DNA of 64,000 nt. It comes from a phage. The position numbers were made by a program, and so were the translations under genes. The notes under the pieces were generated by a model, which saw nothing but the letters and a program-made list of their open reading frames with translations, did no database searches and was not told where the DNA came from. The stretch lies in the sequence record OZ336096.1; one strand, 5' to 3'. This document shows, piece after piece, positions 9,309-63,593 of the stretch (positions are counted from its first letter, which is position 1; every line of letters begins with the position of its first letter).

Positions 9309-9565
9309 TTTTACTCCCTCTAAAATCATTAACCACATACATTACTGCAAAAAATTATAAAAAGCAAGTTGACAATACACTTGACAAGGTGTTAATCTTT
9401 GCGAAGTGGGTTTTTACTTAAAAGGTTACTTAACAGTTTAACTATACAGATACTTTAAAACTCTTAAAAGATTATTTAATAGCTTTTAAAAAGCTTTAAA
9501 GTATAACGTATAGAATACGTTAAGATAAAAGATTAAAACTTAATAGTTACTTAAAAGAGGCTTAC

Positions 9566-47625: not shown

Positions 47626-47705
47626 ATTGTCAATCAACGGGGAGGGAATGACCTTCCCCACTAAATAAAGTCCTTAAACTACTTCCTAAACTGGAGAATC
47701 TAAAA
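47626..47705 (+). promoter_or_regulatory. cassette unit type 2
   Basis: Copy of CTGTAAATTGTCAATCAACGGGGAGGGAATGACCTTCCCC leader. Confidence 0.55.
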
Positions 47706-47954
47706 ATGGCAACTATCCGCGCTACTGTTAACGAGTTCGGTTTTTCCTCTCTGGATGTTAAATTTGACATTGCAGGCACTGATAACGCCTTTGAAATGGT
47801 GAAAGGTCTTATCAGTCAGACCATCAAAGATTATAATCCTTCGGATGAGTTCTGGGAGGAAACAAAACAAGAAGTTCTCAAGGATGGTTATACTTATCAC
47901 TATTGGGGAGAAAAAATCGTCTCCCTGTACTACAACAAACAAGGTTATAACTAA
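47706..47954 (+). CDS. hypothetical protein (last cassette gene)
   Basis: 82 aa ORF; terminator follows. Confidence 0.5.
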   Translation: MATIRATVNEFGFSSLDVKFDIAGTDNAFEMVKGLISQTIKDYNPSDEFWEETKQEVLKDGYTYHYWGEKIVSLYYNKQGYN

Positions 47955-47988
47955 TCGACGCAGCGGGGCTAAATAGCCCCAGATACCT

Positions 47989-48015
47989 GAACAGCCCCTC
48001 ATAGGGGCTTTTTTA
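47989..48015 (+). terminator. intrinsic terminator
   Basis: AGCCCCTCATAGGGGCT hairpin followed by TTTTTT. Confidence 0.55.
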
Positions 48016-49618
48016 CGTCTATCCAATCCTTATACAATCCCTTTCCCTCACCTTTCCAGAATCTTCCCACTGATTCAATAGAATCTATCTCATACCTTAA
48101 AAAGTAATAACTCTATAGCTTACTCTATAGCCCCTTATCAAATCAACTTAAATATAAGCCCATAACCCGAAAGGGAAGGGCAACCATTTAAACGCTCTAT
48201 AAAGCCCTATAACAACCTTATCAATCTAACTTAAGGGATTGCATTAACCCACCCTTAAAAGCCCTTTATAAAGCTTTCTAGAGCCTTAAAAGAACCTTAT
48301 AAGGTTATAAGCTTTATTATCTCGTTAGCTATCTTGTGAACTACTAAAAAGGGCTTGTTAGTGTTTTAAAAGTATGTTATAGGGGCTATAAAGTTACTTC
48401 AAAGTTGCTTAAAAGGGGCTTAAAAGTTACGTAAATGCTAGCCACCTTAACATTTTCTTAACAATTTCTTAACAAACCCTACATAGTTATGCTTTTAAGG
48501 CACTTGTTAGCAACTTGTTAGCCCCTTGTTAAATCTCTGTTAAGACCATGTAAAAGCCTTGTAAGAGTCTTTGACATAGCCTTTAAAGCTCCTGCAAAGC
48601 CCTATAAAGAGCTATCCATACAATTGATGGGTAAATACTAGGGGGAGACTGAAAAGAGCCTATAAAGAGCTTTTAAGAGCTTTTAAAAGTATGTTTAAGG
48701 AATCACTAAGAAAGGAAAGGGAACGATAAGAAAGAGATAGTGACCATGTTAATAGCTTGTTAAAAAGATTAAACACTTGTTAGGAACTTGTTAATTATCT
48801 TAACAAAATAACTCTTAAAAATTAACTTGTTAGCTCTTGTTAGTCATCTGTTAAGACTCTGTAAAGACCATGTAGCAACTGTTAAGAAACTGTTAAGCCC
48901 TTGTTAGTTTTGTTAAGAATCTGTTAAGACCTCTGAAGAGATGTTAAGAGAATGTAATAGCTGTTAAGAGATTGTTAATGATATTTTAAAATTCTGCAAA
49001 GGGGATGTTACAGGGATGTTAAGGGCTACCAAGCAGATATACACCTTTTACAGATATTTTTCAGTTCCTTCAAAGACCCTAAAAAATGACTTGACAACTC
49101 TATTTTATAAAAATTTTAAAATTCTGAATAATTACCTATACAGTCTTTTAAAAATACAGGCATAAACAGGCTTATAAGATACCTTGTTAGTACCGTGTTA
49201 GACCTTGTGAGATAAGGTCTGTAAAGATATTCCTGTTAAGTTTATTAAAACAGTCTATATAGAGGCTTAGTAATACCTAGTGAACATCTATAGAGAGTCA
49301 CATAGCTGACATAGAGATTAAGAGGTGTATAGGAGCTTCTAAGAGGGTATAGAGAGATGGTTAAGGTGATTGTATAGGTTGTTAAGAAGGCTTGTTAGAA
49401 GACTAGTTAGAAGGGTTATACAGAGGGGCTATTAAGACCACTAGATAGTTACTAAGATACTATATAGTACTATATAACTATATAGAGAGTAAGATTAAGA
49501 AGGTTGTTAAGAAGGGTAGATATTTTGTTCACATATGATGGTGACCCAGAGGTTGGGACAACCAATAAAATTTTATAAAAATTAAAAAGCCCCCAATTAA
49601 GGAGGCTCTTAAGATATT
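48016..49618. repeat. 1.6 kb ORF-free region dense in short degenerate repeats (TATAAAG, [C/T]TGTTA[A/G]G, TATAGAG families)
   Basis: No ORF >= 60 aa in any frame; dozens of copies of TTGTTAG / CTGTTAAG / ATGTTAAG, TATAAAG-type motifs upstream and TATAGAG / CTATATAG motifs downstream. Confidence 0.8.
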
Positions 49619-55952: not shown

Positions 55953-56179
55953 TTTTCAGTTCTCCTGCGGTTTATAATTTTGCTGCAATAGAGAAACGAA
56001 GTAAACTCACTGGAAGAAACCATTAAGTGTTGTTCACTAGATTGAGCCATTGCCCTGAAATACATTCCAGTCAAAGCATCATAGTGACTATTCTTTCCAA
56101 TTGAGGTTATATAGCCATGACTCTTTGCAGTTTGATATAAATCTATAATATCTGCGATTTCTAATTGGGAACTACACAT
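55946..56179 (-). CDS. hypothetical protein
   Basis: 77 aa ORF. Confidence 0.35.
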   Translation of the reverse strand: MCSSQLEIADIIDLYQTAKSHGYITSIGKNSHYDALTGMYFRAMAQSSEQHLMVSSSEFTSFLYCSKIINRRRTEKC

Positions 56180-56343
56180 AGATAATCCTCTTGTCTTCTG
56201 TAATTTTGAAAGAACAGGTACAGACCAATTTCAGAGGATGAATAGTAGATTAATTCTACCCTTTTTGATTCCTTACAGTGATTGGTATTCTTACCTTTCT
56301 TCGGTTTATTTGATTTTCTCATTAAGTCTCCTTTGTAGAACAA
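56161..56343 (-). CDS. hypothetical basic protein
   Basis: 60 aa ORF, first gene of the minus-strand block. Confidence 0.3.
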   Translation of the reverse strand: MFYKGDLMRKSNKPKKGKNTNHCKESKRVELIYYSSSEIGLYLFFQNYRRQEDYLCVVPN

Positions 56344-56571
56344 GGCAGACCTACAGCTTTAAGTAAGATGGTACAGTAATCCATACAACAAGTCAAGAAC
56401 TATTGCAAGTTAAAAAAGTTGTTGACAAAGTACTTGACAAGGTATAGACTTATAAATACTTAGAAGATAACTTAAAAGGTTCCTCTAAAAAGGCTATTTA
56501 AACAGATATCTTTCTGGATATCTATCTTTTATCTTAAAAGCCTTTTAAGAGGTCTTATAAGAGGCATACCA

Positions 56572-57024: not shown

Positions 57025-58440
57025 ATGAGCGAATTATTTAAACATGCGCACCTTCATGCAGGTCGAACTGAAAATGGTGCTGTAAACCATACTTCATCAA
57101 TGTCTGCTCTTGTAGACTTTTACAAAGCTGCTGGTTCAAGCCGTAGCAACGTAGAAATCTTACCAGACCTGTTCTACAAAGCTTTGCGTGAAGATGTTGA
57201 TGTTGCAGTTCGTATTTTGCTTCACATGCGAGATGTACGAGAAGGTATGGGTGAGCGTAAAGCCTTCAGAACTGTTTTACTTCAAGCAATCGAAGATAAA
57301 GTTTTAGAGCCTACACAGGTTCTTCGTATTATGGATAAGATTGCAGAACTCGGTCGTTTTGATGACTTCAAAATCTTCGTGGGTACTCGTTTCGAGACAG
57401 ATGCCTTCAAGCATTTAGAAGCAGCATTACTAGACCCTGCAACAGCAGGTTTGGCAGCTAAGTGGTTACCACGAGTCAAACCACGTCATAAGCAGTTTGT
57501 AAAACGTTTCTGTAAGTTTGCCAACTTGAGTGAGAAAGAGTACCGCACACTGTTGTCTGCACTATCTGATACAGTTGAGCAAAAAATCTCTGCTAATGAT
57601 TTTGGTAAGATTGACTACAGCAAGATTCCTTCACTTGCTGCTGCACGTTACCAGAAGCTGTTTAACCGCAAGGATGGAGAACGCTACAAAGCTTACATTG
57701 AGTCCTTATCAAAGGGTGAGACTAAGATTAATGCTGGTGCTGTTTACCCATACGATGTGATTAAATCTGTTAAGCATGGTAATGCAGATGTTGCTAATGA
57801 GCAGTGGAAAGCACTACCAAACTGGATGGCAGAGGGTGAAAACATCTTGTGTATGACTGATGTTTCAGGCTCAATGTCTTGGGTGAATCTTGGTTCAATC
57901 ACCGCCCTTGATATTGGTGTATCACTTGCCTTGTATGTAGCAGAACGTAATACAGGTTGCTTTAAGGATGAGTTAATGGTTTATTCAACAAACCCTTACT
58001 TCATCGAACTGAGTGGTGATTTACGAAACCGTCATCGTCAGGTGATGCGACATGTTGAATATGGCTCAACTAACTTACAAGCAGCTTTTGACCGCATTCT
58101 TGAGACAGGTAAAAGAAATAACTTGACTCAGAAAGATATGCCAAGTAAGCTTATCATCTTCTCCGATATGGAGTTCAATCAGGTTGATGGAGCTAACGGT
58201 CGTACAAACTTTGAAGCAATTCAGAGTAAGTACAAAAAAGCTGGATATGAGATGCCACAACTGGTATTCTGGTACTTAGCAAACCGTAATGGTACTTGCG
58301 AAGTGTCTGTTAAGGATAACGGTGTAGCAATGGTATCTGGTTTCTCTCCAGCCACTTTAAAAGCTCTGCTTGGTGGTGAGAAGTTTGACCCAATCAGCGT
58401 AATGCTCAAAGCAGTAATGATTGACCGTTATATCTGGTAA
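57025..58440 (+). CDS. von Willebrand factor A domain protein with N-terminal helical domain (possibly Ro60/TROVE-like)
   Basis: 471 aa; MIDAS-like DVSGSM in ILCMTDVSGSMSW and downstream vWA-like pattern; helical N-terminal ~270 aa. Confidence 0.5.
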   Translation: MSELFKHAHLHAGRTENGAVNHTSSMSALVDFYKAAGSSRSNVEILPDLFYKALREDVDVAVRILLHMRDVREGMGERKAFRTVLLQAIEDKVLEPTQVLRIMDKIAELGRFDDFKIFVGTRFETDAFKHLEAALLDPATAGLAAKWLPRVKPRHKQFVKRFCKFANLSEKEYRTLLSALSDTVEQKISANDFGKIDYSKIPSLAAARYQKLFNRKDGERYKAYIESLSKGETKINAGAVYPYDVIKSVKHGNADVANEQWKALPNWMAEGENILCMTDVSGSMSWVNLGSITALDIGVSLALYVAERNTGCFKDELMVYSTNPYFIELSGDLRNRHRQVMRHVEYGSTNLQAAFDRILETGKRNNLTQKDMPSKLIIFSDMEFNQVDGANGRTNFEAIQSKYKKAGYEMPQLVFWYLANRNGTCEVSVKDNGVAMVSGFSPATLKALLGGEKFDPISVMLKAVMIDRYIW

Positions 58441-58605: not shown

Positions 58606-58682
58606 CTCTGTTTAGCTCAGCTTGGTAGAGCGTTCCGTTTGGGGCGGTAAGGCCGGAGGTTCAAGTCCTCCAACAGAGACCA
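58606..58682 (+). tRNA. tRNA-Pro (anticodon UGG)
   Basis: 7 bp acceptor CTCTGTT/AACAGAG, D-arm TAGCTCAGCTTGGTAGAGC, T-loop GGTTCAAGTCC, CCA encoded; hand-folded. Confidence 0.6.
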
Positions 58683-58689
58683 AATTAAT

Positions 58690-58767
58690 GTTCCAGTAGA
58701 CAAAACGGTAAAGTCACCACTCTTTCAAAGTGGATATTTGAGGGTTCAAATCCCTTCTGGAACGCCA
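58690..58767 (+). tRNA. tRNA-Glu (UUC)
   Basis: Acceptor GTTCCAG/CTGGAAC, anticodon loop CTTTCAA, T-loop GGTTCAAATCC. Confidence 0.7.
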
Positions 58768-58858
58768 GTTTTGACAGAAGACCAATTGCAGCAAACTTAA
58801 TCTTATTCATCTGACACGAAATCGGACAAAGAAGAGATTTGGTCTGGTCATTAAGAAT

Positions 58859-58935
58859 TGCGGGTATAGAGAAAGGGCGTCTCACATGTCTCATTAGCAT
58901 GGTATCGGCAGGTTCGACTCCTGCACCCGCCTCCA
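58859..58935 (+). tRNA. tRNA-Met (CAU)
   Basis: Anticodon stem CATGT/GCATG, loop CTCATTA, T-loop GGTTCGACTCC; 1-72 mismatch. Confidence 0.55.
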
Positions 58936-59012
58936 ATTTTGCAGAAGACCGTATTCAGCAACAAAATACTTTTTGCGGATAAAAGAAAAAACACGGTCTG
59001 GCAATGTATTAA

Positions 59013-59089
59013 GGTTAGGAAGCACATAAGGTATGTGCGGTCGCCTGTTAAGCGAATGGCACAGGGTTCGAATCCCTGACTAACCGCCA
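59013..59089 (+). tRNA. tRNA-Asn (GUU)
   Basis: Acceptor GGTTAGG, loop CTGTTAA, T-loop GGTTCGAATCC. Confidence 0.65.
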
Positions 59090-59098
59090 AATTTAAAT

Positions 59099-59186
59099 GT
59101 GTCGTTATCCCGTAGATGGTAGCGGTGGGGACTGTAAATCCCTTGTCATTGAGACTCGGTAGGTTCGACTCCTACACGGCACACCA
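59099..59186 (+). tRNA. tRNA-Tyr (GUA), long variable arm
   Basis: Acceptor GTGTCGT/ACGGCAC, loop CTGTAAA, long variable arm, T-loop GGTTCGACTCC. Confidence 0.65.
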
Positions 59187-59192
59187 AATAAA

Positions 59193-59270
59193 GGTTATGT
59201 AGTTTAATCTGGTTAAAATACTCCCCTGTCACGGGAGATGATGAGGGTTCAAATCCCTTCGTAACCGCCA
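59193..59270 (+). tRNA. tRNA-Asp (GUC)
   Basis: Acceptor GGTTATG/CGTAACC, AC stem CTCCC/GGGAG, loop CTGTCAC. Confidence 0.7.
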
Positions 59271-59493
59271 AATTATAATAAGTATTTCAAGATGATGTTT
59301 TGAGAGGGCTATTTAGCCCCTCCCTTAAAGAGTTCTTACGAGTATTCTTTAAAGGAGCAGAAGACCAAATTCAGCAAGTACGTATGATATTTTCAAGCCA
59401 ATTTAATTTTGAAAAATTTAAAACTTGGTCTGGCTCAACAGATTTACAGAAGACCGTTTACAGCAAAACTTAAACAATCTATTTCTCCGGTAA

Positions 59494-59556
59494 AGAAAAG
59501 GCGAAGGTTCGATTCCTTCACTCGGCAGATGTCGAGTTGGTGTAATGGTAGCACTT
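59494..59556 (+). pseudogene. tRNA-like halves in permuted order (3' half then 5' half)
   Basis: GGCGAAGGTTCGATTCCTTCACTCGGCAG (T-arm + 3' acceptor) immediately followed by GTCGAGTTGGTGTAATGGTAGCAC (5' acceptor + D-arm); the two acceptor strands are complementary to each other. Confidence 0.35.
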
Positions 59557-59727
59557 AAGATGATAAACAACGGTCTGGTAATTATCTTTGTAGATAAGTT
59601 ATTAAGCTTACCTGTGAGTATGCGACCACAAAGGGTGAAAGGGTAAATTCTAGATTTAAACCCAACAAGGCACATCGCTACAGACCTTAAGCAAGTCTGG
59701 GTAGCTTATCTACAAAGATAATTTAAT

Positions 59728-59803
59728 GGAAGTGTAGCAGAATGGTGATGCGGCAGACTTTTAATCTGACAGGCGATGGGTTCGAATCCCTCCACTTCTA
59801 CCA
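59728..59803 (+). tRNA. tRNA-Lys (UUU)
   Basis: Acceptor GGAAGTG/CACTTCT, loop CTTTTAA, T-loop GGTTCGAATCC. Confidence 0.6.
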
Positions 59804-59807
59804 ATAT

Positions 59808-59884
59808 GGTTCAGTCGCAGATAAGGTAATGCAGGGGTCTCATAAGCCCTATGAATGTGGGTTCGATTCCCATCTGAACCTCCA
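59808..59884 (+). tRNA. tRNA with CAU anticodon (Met or lysidine-Ile)
   Basis: Acceptor GGTTCAG/CTGAACC, loop CTCATAA, T-loop GGTTCGATTCC. Confidence 0.6.
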
Positions 59885-59885
59885 A

Positions 59886-59961
59886 GCTGGTATAGTTAAG
59901 AAGGTTATAACACTCCCCTGATAAGGGAACATCGGTGGTTCGATTCCACCTACCAGTACCA
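59886..59961 (+). tRNA. tRNA-Ile (GAU)
   Basis: Acceptor GCTGGTA/TACCAGT, loop CTGATAA, T-loop GGTTCGATTCC. Confidence 0.65.
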
Positions 59962-60298
59962 ATTTCAATAAAGTTGTTGACATTGAGATGTGACCACTTT
60001 TTAGTAACTAAAATACTTCATAATATGTATAATTCAAACACCAATACATGAGCGTTAGACGTAACACAATGTGGGGAAATTTGTTGTACATATTCTGAAT
60101 AGTTTTCGTTGCGTAGCGTCTATTTTGCAAATTTAAAATAAATGCAAACGACAATGTTTTTCTGGCAGTAGCTTGATAGGCTAAACACCAGTGAGGTCTT
60201 CCAATCCCTCATCAAAGAATTTGGCGTACTAGCCCACGGTATGATTAATAAAGTGGGCATCTTTAAGGGCTTTCTAAGAGAGTCTTTAAAGATAATTA

Positions 60299-60380
60299 CG
60301 GGGCGTATCTCAGCTGTCTTCTAAACAGCCGTTAACCGAGTAAGTGGAGTATGCGGGTTCGAGTCCTGCCGCCTCGACCA
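60299..60380 (+). tRNA. atypical tRNA-like gene, possibly tRNA-Arg (UCU)
   Basis: Acceptor CGGGGCG/CGCCTCG + ACCA, T-loop GGTTCGAGTCC, perfect anticodon hairpin GCTGT-CTTCTAA-ACAGC, but no recognisable D-arm and a long segment after the anticodon arm. Confidence 0.35.
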
Positions 60381-60523
60381 ATTTAGTTAGCAGATTACTT
60401 AGACGACCTAAGCGGGTCTTCCTGTAGGGAGGTGGTCTGTATCTCATGTTTTCCAGAACATGTAAATAATCTGAGAAGAAGCTTGACAGTGTTGAGATAA
60501 TACGGTAAGCTTCGAATTATAGT

Positions 60524-60606
60524 ATGGGACGATGTTAAGACTCTAAGGCATGAGCAACGGCTTCCAACACCGTTTCAAAGGGGTTCAACTCCTCCGTCCC
60601 ATGCCA
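60524..60606 (+). tRNA. atypical tRNA-like gene, possibly tRNA-Trp (CCA)
   Basis: Acceptor ATGGGAC/GTCCCAT + GCCA, T-loop GGTTCAACTCC; anticodon region AACGG-CTTCCAACA-CCGTT allows a 7 nt loop (CCA) or a 9 nt loop; extra nucleotides in the D region. Confidence 0.4.
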
Positions 60607-60619
60607 AAGTCTTATTAGG

Positions 60620-60709
60620 GGTAGGTAGCGGCTAATGGTAGCCAAACTGTCTTGAAAACAGTTGCCACTGTAGAGATACGGTGAGGGTTCGACTCCTTTA
60701 CTTACCGCC
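60620..60709 (+). tRNA. tRNA-Ser (UGA), long variable arm
   Basis: AC stem ACTGT/ACAGT, loop CTTGAAA, long variable arm, T-loop GGTTCGACTCC; 3' end GCC (CCA not fully encoded). Confidence 0.65.
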
Positions 60710-60862
60710 TAATAAGATTTAAAGCCAAGCTTCATTCGGATGTTGCTTTGGTATCCCTCGTGTTGTCGAACACACTAATAAAGCACCTAGTAGGTGTCAC
60801 GGAGAAGAGATAATATCAAGCTCTCCAAAGGTCCTAGTCACCGGATTAAACAAGACTATGCA

Positions 60863-60884
60863 AAGACCTTTTTAGGTCTTTTTA
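60863..60884 (+). terminator. intrinsic terminator
   Basis: AAGACCTTTTTAGGTCTT hairpin followed by TTT. Confidence 0.5.
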
Positions 60885-60962
60885 GAGGGCTTCTAAGGTT
60901 ATTGCAGCTTGTTGTGGAACCTTGTTGCTTAGGTTCTTAGAAGTTCTCTAAAAAGATTTAAT

Positions 60963-61040
60963 GGGAGATTGACGGTAATTGGTAAACCTACCATCCTTAG
61001 AAGTTGGTGTTTGAGGGTTCGAATCCCTTGTCTCCTACCA
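60963..61040 (+). tRNA. tRNA with UAG anticodon (Leu-type), short variable arm
   Basis: Acceptor GGGAGAT/GTCTCCT, loop CTTAGAA, T-loop GGTTCGAATCC, discriminator A. Confidence 0.5.
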
Positions 61041-61047
61041 AATTAAT

Positions 61048-61123
61048 GCAGGTGTAGCAAAATGGTTATGCGGCTGACTCTTAATCAGTAAGACGATGGG
61101 TTCAATTCCCTCCACCTGTACCA
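61048..61123 (+). tRNA. tRNA-Lys (CUU)
   Basis: Acceptor GCAGGTG/CACCTGT, loop CTCTTAA, T-loop GGTTCAATTCC. Confidence 0.6.
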
Positions 61124-61129
61124 AACATT

Positions 61130-61205
61130 GGGGATGTAGTTTACATGGTTAAAACATAAGTTTTGCAAACTTAAGTACAGGGTTCAATTCCCTGCTTCTC
61201 CACCA
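61130..61205 (+). tRNA. tRNA-Ala (UGC)
   Basis: AC stem TAAGT/ACTTA, loop TTTGCAA, T-loop GGTTCAATTCC. Confidence 0.65.
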
Positions 61206-61211
61206 ATTAGT

Positions 61212-61286
61212 GCATCCATAGTTTAAACGGGAAAATTACAGTCTTCCAAACTGAGGTTGAGGGTTCGATTCCCTCTGGATGCTCCA
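61212..61286 (+). tRNA. tRNA-Gly (UCC)
   Basis: Perfect acceptor GCATCCA/TGGATGC, loop CTTCCAA, T-loop GGTTCGATTCC. Confidence 0.7.
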
Positions 61287-61293
61287 AATTAAT

Positions 61294-61370
61294 GCTGCTT
61301 TCGTATAATTGGCTATTACACATCCCTTGTAAGGATGGAAATGCAGGTTCGAGTCCTGTGAGCAGCACCA
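61294..61370 (+). tRNA. tRNA-Thr (UGU)
   Basis: Acceptor GCTGCTT/GAGCAGC, AC stem CATCC/GGATG, loop CTTGTAA, T-loop GGTTCGAGTCC. Confidence 0.75.
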
Positions 61371-61465
61371 ATTCAGAGGTCAAGTGAAAGACCGCTGGTG
61401 TCAACTGAAGACCGTAACAAATTCCACGGAGTTGAGTTAGCGGCACAACTTCAGACCTCTTCCAT

Positions 61466-61540
61466 ACTCGCTTAGTTTATATGGTAAAACATCACCCTTA
61501 CAAGATGAAGAAAAAGGTTCAAGTCCTTTAGTGAGTACCA
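61466..61540 (+). tRNA. tRNA-Val (UAC)
   Basis: Acceptor ACTCGCT/AGTGAGT, loop CTTACAA, T-loop GGTTCAAGTCC. Confidence 0.65.
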
Positions 61541-61541
61541 T

Positions 61542-61619
61542 GTTCCAGTATCCCAATTGGCAGAGGATGCAAGCTCAAACCTTGTACTAGTGACGGTTCG
61601 AATCCGTCTTGGAACACCA
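61542..61619 (+). tRNA. tRNA with CAA anticodon (Leu-type), short variable arm
   Basis: Acceptor GTTCCAG/TTGGAAC, AC stem GCAAG/CTTGT, loop CTCAAAC, T-loop GGTTCGAATCC, discriminator A. Confidence 0.5.
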
Positions 61620-61638
61620 ATTTTAAGAGGCTATTTAG

Positions 61639-62196
61639 ATGAGATATTTGAAGTATGCTTCATGGATTTTCCTAGCTTTACTAGAACCATTTGCAGCAAC
61701 CCTAGCAGTCATCTTAGCACCTTTCGTAGTTCCATTCTACAGTGAGAAGAAAGGACATCTACCTTTTGGATTCAGATGGATGGAGACCTATGACAACCCG
61801 ATTGATGGTGATGAAGGCCACGTTAAAAGATGGGCTAAGGTTAGAAAGATTGGTAAGCTGGGTGTCTACATGCAGAGAGTTGGATGGCTCTGGAGAAACA
61901 AAGCTTATAACTTCTCTTACCATGTATTAGGAAGAGATGTAAAAGATGTTACTAAGTGGAAAGGTAATATCAACGTAAGTTCTGACCCTGAAGATAATCA
62001 GACTGGTTATCTCCTAATGTGGAACAGTAATGCTTGGGGATTATTCGCTTTTATCCCATCAATTAAAGTCTTTGGTAAACAGTTTTACTGGAGAATTTAT
62101 ATTGGATGGAAACTAAAAAGTGTTGTCCCAGAAGAAAGAGCATTCTCAAGGGGAAGAGTTATGTTGGCATTCTTTATTCATCCACTGAGAAAGTAA
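61639..62196 (+). CDS. hypothetical membrane-anchored protein embedded in the tRNA cluster
   Basis: 185 aa ORF with AAGAGG RBS; N-terminal hydrophobic helix. Confidence 0.5.
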   Translation: MRYLKYASWIFLALLEPFAATLAVILAPFVVPFYSEKKGHLPFGFRWMETYDNPIDGDEGHVKRWAKVRKIGKLGVYMQRVGWLWRNKAYNFSYHVLGRDVKDVTKWKGNINVSSDPEDNQTGYLLMWNSNAWGLFAFIPSIKVFGKQFYWRIYIGWKLKSVVPEERAFSRGRVMLAFFIHPLRK

Positions 62197-62204
62197 AGAT
62201 TTAA

Positions 62205-62280
62205 AGGGGATTAGTTTACAAGGTTAAAACCTCGGTCTTTGAAATCGAAGAAGTTGGTTCAATTCCAACATCCCCCGCCA
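62205..62280 (+). tRNA. tRNA-Gln (UUG)
   Basis: D-stem GTTT/AAAC, AC stem TCGGT/ATCGA, loop CTTTGAA, T-loop GGTTCAATTCC. Confidence 0.6.
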
Positions 62281-62282
62281 AT

Positions 62283-62361
62283 GCTCCATTACTCCAATTG
62301 GCAGAGAGGCCAGACTTAAAATCTGTGTTATGTATCGGTTCGAATCCGATATGGAGTACCA
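62283..62361 (+). tRNA. tRNA with UAA anticodon (Leu-type), short variable arm
   Basis: Acceptor GCTCCAT/ATGGAGT, loop CTTAAAA, T-loop GGTTCGAATCC, discriminator A. Confidence 0.5.
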
Positions 62362-62366
62362 AATTT

Positions 62367-62442
62367 AGCGGTATAGCATAACTGGCAATGCAGCAGTCTC
62401 TGAAGCTGTCCTATTAAGGTTCAAATCCTTATGCCGCTGCCA
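62367..62442 (+). tRNA. tRNA-Gln (CUG)
   Basis: Acceptor AGCGGTA/TGCCGCT, loop CTCTGAA, T-loop GGTTCAAATCC. Confidence 0.6.
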
Positions 62443-62473
62443 CTTCTAAGGTTTCTTACGAGAGTCCTTAAAT

Positions 62474-62549
62474 GTGGCCTTATCATAAATGGTAATGACC
62501 CATGCTGTGAACATGGTCTATACGGGTTCAAATCCCGTAGGTCACCCCA
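62474..62549 (+). tRNA. tRNA-His (GUG)
   Basis: D-stem TCAT/ATGA, AC stem CCATG/CATGG, loop CTGTGAA, T-loop GGTTCAAATCC. Confidence 0.75.
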
Positions 62550-62555
62550 ATTTAT

Positions 62556-62631
62556 AGTCCAAGTGGCTTATATGGTTAAAGCGCGTGTCTGAAAAACATG
62601 AGAAGAGGGTTCAAATCCCACTGGACTACCA
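62556..62631 (+). tRNA. tRNA-Phe (GAA)
   Basis: Acceptor TAGTCCA/TGGACTA, loop CTGAAAA, T-loop GGTTCAAATCC. Confidence 0.6.
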
Positions 62632-62647
62632 ATTTCAAAGGTGCTTA

Positions 62648-63382
62648 ATGAAAGAGATGACAGAACAAGGTAAGGAGATTTTTAATCTCTTAAAAACCGG
62701 TAAAGGGTTTTCTAATCCCCTTATTACTGGTGCAGCAGTTCTAGGTGGAACCGTGGCTGCCTCTACATCACTTGTAAGCTCTATTAGCTCTGTAACAGAC
62801 CCTACAATGAAGGATAAACTTGTTGCTGCTGGACTTACAACAGTCCTTCTAAACAGCTTTACAACAAGCCTGACAAGCACTACAGCAACTACTAAGACCC
62901 TAACAGACTATGGTCAAAAATCTATTGATGAGTTTTCATCACGTATGCAGGTAGCAAAGGGATACTCCAATGTTATGGGTGCAGCAGGAGAACAAGTTGG
63001 TTGTACACCATTCAGTGGTATTATGGGTGTTGCTACAGAGTATGGTCAAAAAGCTATTGACATGATGAACAGTACACTAGATAGTGTTAATGGTGTGTTA
63101 AGTGACTTACAGGACGCTATTGACAAGGGTCTTGATACTGTTTCTGATTTAGCTAACCAAGCTGTCAGTAAGATTAATGAAGGTATCTCAAAGATTACAG
63201 CTTATGCAGATGAAGTTGTGCAGATGATTGAAGAAGAGGCTGCCCTTATTGCAGAGTACCTTAAAACGAATATCAATGGGTTCTTAGCAGGTATCTTACC
63301 AGACTGGTTTGATGATGCTTGTAAAACTGGTGTAATTGACACTATTGCAACACCAGAAATGAAGAACGCATTACAGAAATAA
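62648..63382 (+). CDS. hypothetical Ser/Thr-rich protein embedded in the tRNA cluster
   Basis: ORF 62585-63382 trimmed to ATG 62648 so it no longer overlaps tRNA-Phe; hydrophobic segment ITGAAVLGGTVAAS; stop abuts tRNA-Ser. Confidence 0.45.
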   Translation: MKEMTEQGKEIFNLLKTGKGFSNPLITGAAVLGGTVAASTSLVSSISSVTDPTMKDKLVAAGLTTVLLNSFTTSLTSTTATTKTLTDYGQKSIDEFSSRMQVAKGYSNVMGAAGEQVGCTPFSGIMGVATEYGQKAIDMMNSTLDSVNGVLSDLQDAIDKGLDTVSDLANQAVSKINEGISKITAYADEVVQMIEEEAALIAEYLKTNINGFLAGILPDWFDDACKTGVIDTIATPEMKNALQK

Positions 63383-63383
63383 T

Positions 63384-63476
63384 GGAAGATTAACCCTAAA
63401 AGGTAAGGGAGCAGTTTGCTAAACTGCCAGTAGCTGAGAAATCGGTGTACCAGTTCAAGTCTGGTATCTTCCTCCA
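63384..63476 (+). tRNA. tRNA-Ser (GCU), long variable arm
   Basis: Perfect acceptor GGAAGAT/ATCTTCC, AC stem GCAGT/ACTGC, loop TTGCTAA, long variable arm, T-loop AGTTCAAGTCT. Confidence 0.8.
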
Positions 63477-63480
63477 ATTT

Positions 63481-63555
63481 GAATCCGTGACAGAAATGGA
63501 TATGTGCCTGTCTGCAAAACAGGTTTATAAGGGTTCGAGTCCCTTCGGATTCTCC
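63481..63555 (+). tRNA. tRNA-Cys (GCA)
   Basis: Perfect acceptor GAATCCG/CGGATTC, AC stem CCTGT/ACAGG, loop CTGCAAA, T-loop GGTTCGAGTCC. Confidence 0.8.
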
Positions 63556-63593
63556 AAGTTATTTTACTCTCTCTCAATTAAAATAATAATAAT

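Follow-up and report, generated by a model that had tools for sequence, protein, structure and literature searches.

Phages with short exact terminal repeats, for which T7 is the model, replicate their DNA to concatemers that hold one repeat at each junction; terminase cuts on either side of this repeat, which is duplicated by DNA synthesis. Repeated, phased sites for the small terminase subunit are present in cosB of phage lambda and in pacL/pacR of SPP1. The pac site of P1 reportedly contains clusters of TGATCA/G hexamers on both sides of the terminase cut (Sternberg and Coulby in 1987), and the CCTAAAG heptamer arrays flanking the T7 repeat are said to have been named SRL and SRR by Dunn and Studier in 1983. 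T7 is the only case in which the recognition and duplication of a short exact repeat is broadly understood. The process depends on the RNA polymerase encoded by T7: processing is coupled to pausing of this enzyme at the junction (PMC3276506). Here, we describe a gene-free region of 1.6 kb (positions 47990-49618) in phage sequence record OZ336096.1, of which a stretch of 64,000 nucleotides, referred to as the window, was analyzed. The region very probably represents the concatemer junction of a Felixounavirus, with one copy of the direct terminal repeat (DTR) between non-coding DNA of the right and left genome ends.

Felix O1-type phages are widely used in Salmonella/E. coli typing, biocontrol, and therapy, and they have the same type of ends without such a polymerase or a recognizable small terminase subunit. 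Repeats of about 600 bp have already been published for such phages: 608 bp for UAB_Phi87 as determined by Bal31 digestion and run-off sequencing (PMC4837284), and 581 bp for Pr103Blw (PMC8303462) and 613 bp for Ro111lw (PMC6454146) by PhageTerm, which also assigned I14.1 as linear with direct terminal repeats (PMC11737134). The terminases of Felix O1-type phages form a DTR cluster of their own (PMC4837284). In the paper on the Felix O1 genome, the direct repeats listed are all 24 bp or longer and located elsewhere (PMC3185647), and the text on the Bas63 knockout screen does not discuss the region (PMC11482910). No RNA-seq study of Felix O1 was found in the literature, and neither a description of the phased, conserved hexamer arrays reported here nor the placement of the DTR within a conserved 1.6-kb non-coding region was found in the searchable literature.

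Identification of the genome and mapping of the terminal repeat

Region 47990-49618 matched 257 phage records at 80-93% identity, nearly all of them from Felixounavirus or other Ounavirinae, whose hosts are Escherichia, Salmonella, Shigella, and Citrobacter. By these matches, together with a cluster of 24 tRNA genes (58606-63556) as typical for the Felix O1-like group, the window is assigned to the genome of a Felix O1-like myovirus (Felixounavirus) of approximately 87 kb.

Several independent records begin exactly at the base matching window position 48441 and have a second match at their other end. Exact terminal duplications (0 mismatches) of 579, 651, 581, and 694 bp were found in CRP22, NBEco005, I14.1, and NBSal004, respectively; all begin with GCC(C/A)CCTTAACA and all finish with GGGATGTTAAGGGCTACC. 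The first and last bases are identical in these four records from different laboratories, indicating fixed, non-permuted ends. Assembly overlaps do not explain the duplications, because neither boundaries shared across laboratories nor such lengths would then be expected. The start and end of the duplications map to positions 48441 and 49030, giving a repeat of 590 bp in the window, with an accuracy of the boundaries of about 6 bp. The distance from boundary to boundary in 23 relatives was 567-658 bp (614 bp in UAB_Phi87) when a strict left-boundary pattern was applied; a looser pattern matched TTGTTAGCCCC within the array. The window assembly is a circular representation and therefore contains a single DTR copy, and in virion DNA the 590-bp sequence should be present at both ends. 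GenBank entry PP892526 (I14.1) is filed under Tequintavirus (T5-like), whereas it matches a Felixounavirus in sequence, size, and terminal repeat.

Erwinia phage M7, a member of the distant genus Kolesnikvirus, has an exact terminal duplication of 444 bp; the paper on the M7 termini was not found in the literature. The boundaries of this duplication (TTAGCCAC... and ...GGCCACTAA/GTAGATATACA; the slash marks the boundary here and below) are homologous to those of the window within 2-3 nt. The only GCTAGC of the 64-kb window is located at 48437-48442, exactly on the left boundary (GCTA/GC); it is not conserved in Mooglevirus-like relatives or in M7, and is probably not required.

Anatomy of the junction

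The junction is composed of the following features (TGTTAR stands for TGTTA[AG]):

47993-48009, plus strand: Rho-independent terminator with a 7-bp stem and a T run; marks the end of the small plus-strand genes; AYO145A has an annotated terminator at the homologous site
48010-48440: non-coding right-end arm, 431 bp; CTATAAAG/CTTAAAAG/AAAGTTAC repeats with a polarity opposite to that of the TGTTAR array; upstream of the right-hand copy in records with two copies
48441-49030: DTR, single copy, 590 bp; mapped from exact duplications in relatives
48446-48475, minus strand: three CTTAACA units (TGTTAAG in inverted orientation) at 11-bp intervals, starting 6 bp from the left boundary; retained by 12 to 15 of the 15 relatives
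48505-48545, plus strand: TGTTAR cluster 1, four direct copies with a uniform spacing of 11 bp
48747-48795, plus strand: TGTTAR cluster 2, with four direct copies; conservation of the DTR is highest here (0.94-0.95 per 50 bp)
48828-48980, plus strand: TGTTAR cluster 3, eleven direct copies with spacings of 9-11, 20, or 31 bp
49003-49030, plus strand: GGGATGTTAC-AGGGATGTTAAG followed by GGCTACC; right DTR boundary, partial mirror image of the left one
49031-49584: non-coding left-end arm, 554 bp; two CAGATAT directly after the DTR, TATAGAG/CTATATAG at 49250-49490
49585-49610, minus strand: Rho-independent terminator with 10 pairs; closes the minus-strand gene block; annotated as a terminator in AYO145A

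Both bounding terminators point inward, so that transcription converges on the junction and stops before reaching it. Each virion end comprises about 1 kb of gene-free DNA. At the left edge of the DTR, relatives carry between 2 and 5 CTTAACATTTT units; at the right edge, GGGATGTTAC-AGGGATGTTAAG ends the repeat array 7 bp from the boundary. Read inward, the two junctions (TGCTA/GCCACCTTAACAT... and TGCTT/GGTAGCCCTTAACAT...) are partial mirror images of each other. The left-end arm contains a stretch of 90% A+T at approximately 49100-49140 and additional TGTTAG copies at 49185-49240. Three relatives (L018, L025, and L026) carry a 24-bp insertion (ATGAGGTAGATTCTACCGAATCAA) 13 bp past the right boundary (49043/49044).

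The longest open reading frames (ORFs) within 47990-49618 encode 38, 49, and 31 amino acids, and all three are interrupted by stop codons or frameshifts in relatives (alignment of 16 sequences with pairwise identities of 73-95%, which was also used for the TGTTAR conservation values given below). Because these ORFs are not conserved, the 'hypothetical proteins' annotated in the region in some records are likely spurious. A minus-strand ORF of 108 amino acids (47700-48026) covers the first 37 bases of the region and is antisense to a real gene (47706-47954). A promoter scan revealed no convincing sigma-70 promoter inside the region.

Number, phasing, and conservation of the repeat motifs

The initial annotation had described the region as ORF-free, as packed with short repeats that form three zones, and as separating a plus-strand from a minus-strand gene block. 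This description held throughout: none of the internal ORFs is conserved, a terminator lies at each side, the zones occupy the positions assigned to them, and the counts of short repeats exceed by far those expected from the rest of the window. For CTTGTTAG, 9 copies were counted versus 0.01 expected, for TGTTAAG 12 versus 0.4, for TATAGAG 4 versus 0.04, and for CTATAAAG 4 versus 0.09. The zones follow the anatomy of the junction in that CTATAAAG/CTTAAAAG (zone 1) belong to the right-end arm and TATAGAG/CTATATAG (zone 3) to the left-end arm, whereas TGTTAR is the motif of the DTR.

The density of TGTTAR on both strands amounts to 24 per kb at 48001-49000 versus approximately 1.6 per kb elsewhere, and no second cluster of comparable size was found in the rest of the 64-kb window. 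The whole region contains 27 direct and 4 inverted copies, of which 20 direct and all 4 inverted ones lie in the DTR. There, 11 of the 19 spacings between successive copies are 10-12 bp and several more are 20 bp, which places the copies on one face of the helix; none of 20,000 random placements matched the count of 10-12 bp spacings. The zone-1 motifs CTATAAAG/CTTAAAAG resemble the reverse complement of CT(G/T)TTAAG, and motif polarity therefore switches inside the left DTR boundary, about 40-50 bp from it. Two non-coding regions of divergent transcription at 9339-9565 and 55953-56571 contain promoter-like TTGACAAGGT boxes followed by several CTTAAAAG/CTTATAAG motifs, which belong to the same family as junction zone 1.

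The TGTTAR cores in the DTR showed a conservation of 0.963 versus 0.822 for the remaining DTR. Random hexamer sets in the DTR gave 0.856 ± 0.025, with none of 20,000 permutations reaching 0.963, and conservation fell directly outside the six core positions. Zone-3 cores were also conserved above background (0.957 versus 0.895, p about 0.004). The non-coding region as a whole was found in 12 of 12 relatives tested, with 78-96% identity per 200-bp tile, and the neighboring small genes were often absent from these relatives or more divergent than the region itself. Between M7 and the window only about 125 bp can still be aligned; the M7 DTR nevertheless contains TGTTAAG arrays in its right half and TTAACA units in its left half, and its right-end arm carries another phased motif, TCTTCTAA[AG].

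Comparison with described systems

Reading the T7 ends directly, we found three CCTAAAG copies inside the 160-bp repeat, at least eight along with CATAAAG variants in the 180 bp on the right side of this repeat, and related copies also to the left of the right-hand repeat. In common with T7/T3, the junction described here has a direct terminal repeat that is short, exact, and non-permuted and lies in gene-free DNA, arrays of 6-7 bp motifs about one helical turn apart inside and beside this repeat, and a replicative form with one repeat copy between right-end and left-end unique DNA. It differs in the length of the repeat (590 versus 160 bp in T7), in the motif itself, and in the location of the arrays, as TGTTAR is mostly inside the repeat whereas CCTAAAG is mostly beside it in T7. 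Furthermore, it belongs to a myovirus without a recognizable small terminase subunit, in which transcription converges and terminates before the junction, and it lacks a phage RNA polymerase, phiOL/phiOR promoters, and polymerase pausing; Felix O1 itself encodes no RNA polymerase (PMC3185647). With no promoter, inward-facing terminators, and no phage polymerase, the region thus shares no more than its general layout with the T7 junction and does not belong to that polymerase-driven system. T7 (locus L015, 164-171) has ATCTGTTACAG right after its repeat, and the window has GATGTTACAG just inside the right boundary (49008-49015). ATCTGTTAAG occurs in the window arrays, and the 8-mer TGTTACAG shared at the repeat edges of T7 and the window is probably a coincidence.

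As in P1 pac, a packaging cleavage site has several hexamer copies on either side; however, P1 packages by the headful mechanism with permuted ends and a pac site regulated by Dam methylation, whereas the ends are fixed here and GATC is absent from the window. The repeated phased sites near the terminase cut also recall lambda cosB and SPP1 pacL/pacR, where they likewise are a likely recognition platform, but those comprise 3-7 sites of 7-16 bp for a known small subunit instead of about 24 hexamers over 590 bp. The T5 terminal repeat, too, has a repeat-rich non-coding stretch, yet it is about 10 kb long and carries pre-early genes for two-step DNA transfer. A T5-type injection-stop or first-step-transfer region was rejected for the junction, as the 590-bp repeat has no conserved ORF and no pre-early genes.

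Other features of the window

GATC does not occur in the window (1-64000), whereas 185 ± 13 sites were found in shuffled sequences and 225 were estimated by a second-order Markov model, and 26 of the 64 six-base palindromes are absent from it. This points to Dam sites and restriction sites being very strongly avoided across the genome. Between small plus-strand cassette genes, a module of about 57 bp with a hairpin (AAAGTACTTTACARGGGGCTTAAAAGYTGATATCTTAAGCCCCAGATAAAGAGCTTTAC) recurs at approximately 42830-42890, 43650-43710, 44720-44780, and 45515-45575; it corresponds to direct repeats of 57 bp for which the paper on the Felix O1 genome gives no function (PMC3185647). At 57025-58440, directly before the 24 tRNA genes, a protein of 471 amino acids is encoded, for which I14.1 carries the annotation 'RNA-binding protein'. 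Its apparent counterpart is the Ro60-like gp130 of Bas63, which was reported in the knockout screen to be encoded upstream of the tRNA genes of that phage and to counter the ppl defence system (PMC11482910).

Discussion

Judged from its anatomy, the region most likely serves the recognition of the DNA and the formation of its ends by the packaging machinery. A comparison with the genome termini, which the initial annotation had proposed as a check, placed the physical ends and the DTR inside the region by homology, and among the candidate roles listed there packaging therefore fits; a protein-binding array is compatible with it, an injection-stop region and a structured RNA are disfavored, and a replication origin was left without support. 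We infer binding of the motifs by a packaging protein, a staggered-nick route, and a role for the flanking repeat zones. In the proposed sequence of events, replication would yield head-to-tail concatemers with one repeat per junction, and a sequence-specific component of the packaging machinery would bind the phased TGTTAR hexamers, which are 11 bp apart on one helix face, fill the repeat, and adjoin both boundaries in mirror orientation. Terminase would then cut the two strands about 590 bp apart, one at each side of the repeat and in each case 6-8 bp beyond the outermost hexamer, and strand-displacement synthesis would fill in 590 bases, so that every virion receives the repeat at both ends. 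After infection, the two copies would permit recombination or annealing back into concatemers. The flanking arms may offer additional binding sites and hold genes and transcription at a distance from the ends, and the two convergent terminators would exclude transcription from the junction. More specifically, but only tentatively, the about 24 phased hexamers might form a platform for the DNA-recognition component of a terminase without a recognizable small subunit, with the mirror-image boundaries directing symmetric staggered nicks about 590 bp apart; the TGTTAR motif is conserved across the subfamily Ounavirinae.

Several points weigh against this interpretation. The boundaries of the DTR in OZ336096.1 are assigned by homology to relatives. 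The boundary sequences are conserved in the 16 aligned relatives, but at the right boundary this holds by construction, as the relatives were gathered with a 20-mer across it; the left boundary, which was not used for selection, is equally conserved. The mirror alignment of the two junctions scored 27 versus 11.6 ± 5.6 for shuffles, a moderate symmetry (about 2.7 standard deviations) that is weak in M7, although both M7 ends still begin with 5'-TTAG. Searches of the ten neighboring proteins against Pfam and PHROGs returned only families of unknown function and hence no candidate for a DNA-binding protein or small terminase, and annotations in the genus include no small terminase subunit (PMC4837284). 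The large terminase gene starts at approximately 64001, just beyond the end of the window, and the ORF directly upstream of it (63779-63979) encodes an acidic protein of 66 amino acids that is no obvious DNA binder. In T7, most end-proximal sites tolerate insertions, the exceptions lying close to the inner edge of the repeat (PMC11482910), and by analogy the repeats of the array may not be individually essential. Finally, zone-1 cores do not exceed the adjacent sequence in conservation (0.855 versus 0.841), partly because CTATAAAG and CTTAAAAG interchange among relatives, and slippage could explain part of the repetitiveness. That the repeats are mostly neutral slippage products, in a spacer that serves no purpose other than providing the repeat boundaries, would also agree with the variable copy number (2 to 5 CTTAACATTTT units) and DTR length of the relatives. 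It is nevertheless very unlikely, since TGTTAR and zone-3 cores are significantly better conserved than the spacers and the same hexamer is retained in M7 despite divergence of the surroundings beyond alignment.

The conserved, phased, and polar hexamers argue for protein binding without indicating which protein, and the arrays could serve a purpose other than packaging, such as protection or tethering of the ends, control of ejection, or silencing or insulation of the junction. The gene-free virion ends and the occurrence of CTTAAAAG-type motifs beside promoter-like boxes in other non-coding regions would suit such a function, but we consider it unlikely: TGTTAR clusters occur nowhere else in the window, no Chi site was found, and the repeat is gene-free, unlike the first-step-transfer region of T5. 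Moreover, the hexamers lie next to the two cleavage sites, and their distance from these is fixed in all relatives, also in the one from another genus, which ties the arrays to end formation. A replication origin, which is the main rival reading and could apply instead of or besides the DTR role, would require that iteron-like repeats bind an initiator beside an A+T-rich unwinding element. The locus shares tandem phased direct repeats near an A+T-rich stretch with lambda ori, P1 oriR, and plasmid origins; the region is conserved and non-coding, the 90% A+T stretch lies just outside the repeat, and T7 has secondary origins near its ends. An origin is improbable all the same, because the repeats cluster at the DTR and its boundaries and not at the A+T-rich stretch, and the units differ in number and size from those of iteron origins (6-bp cores at 11-bp spacing versus 17-22 bp typical of iterons). 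Neither a DnaA box, with up to one mismatch allowed, nor an adjacent initiator-like gene was found; the neighboring genes belong to no known family, and the locus is a local maximum, not a minimum, of the cumulative GC skew, which here tracks gene orientation.

A structured non-coding RNA or translated micro-ORFs are the least probable of the explanations considered. The left half of the region folds better than shuffled sequences (z = -3.2 and -3.7 for the two strands), but this excess is attributed to inverted repeats in the DNA because it is alike on both strands, and the right half gave z = -0.5 and -2.0. When both strands were scanned with Rfam 15, the best hit reached 26 bits versus a gathering score of 55 and fell on the terminator. 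The lack of a convincing promoter, the inward-facing terminators, and the disruption of the small ORFs in relatives also speak against a transcribed or translated product.

With recognition and end formation by the packaging machinery as the most likely role, the fixed boundaries and the phased hexamer array offer a DNA bait for the recognition protein, and the junction is a candidate minimal packaging signal for the engineering of Felix O1-type phages or transducing particles. The boundaries also provide a rule for opening Felixounavirus assemblies at their true ends, as many records are cut arbitrarily and some annotate spurious genes here. If a hexamer platform and staggered nicks indeed operate, this would be a simpler, transcription-independent way to duplicate a terminal repeat than that of T7. 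The main value of the findings is a defined starting point for studying how Felix O1-type phages recognize and duplicate their ends.

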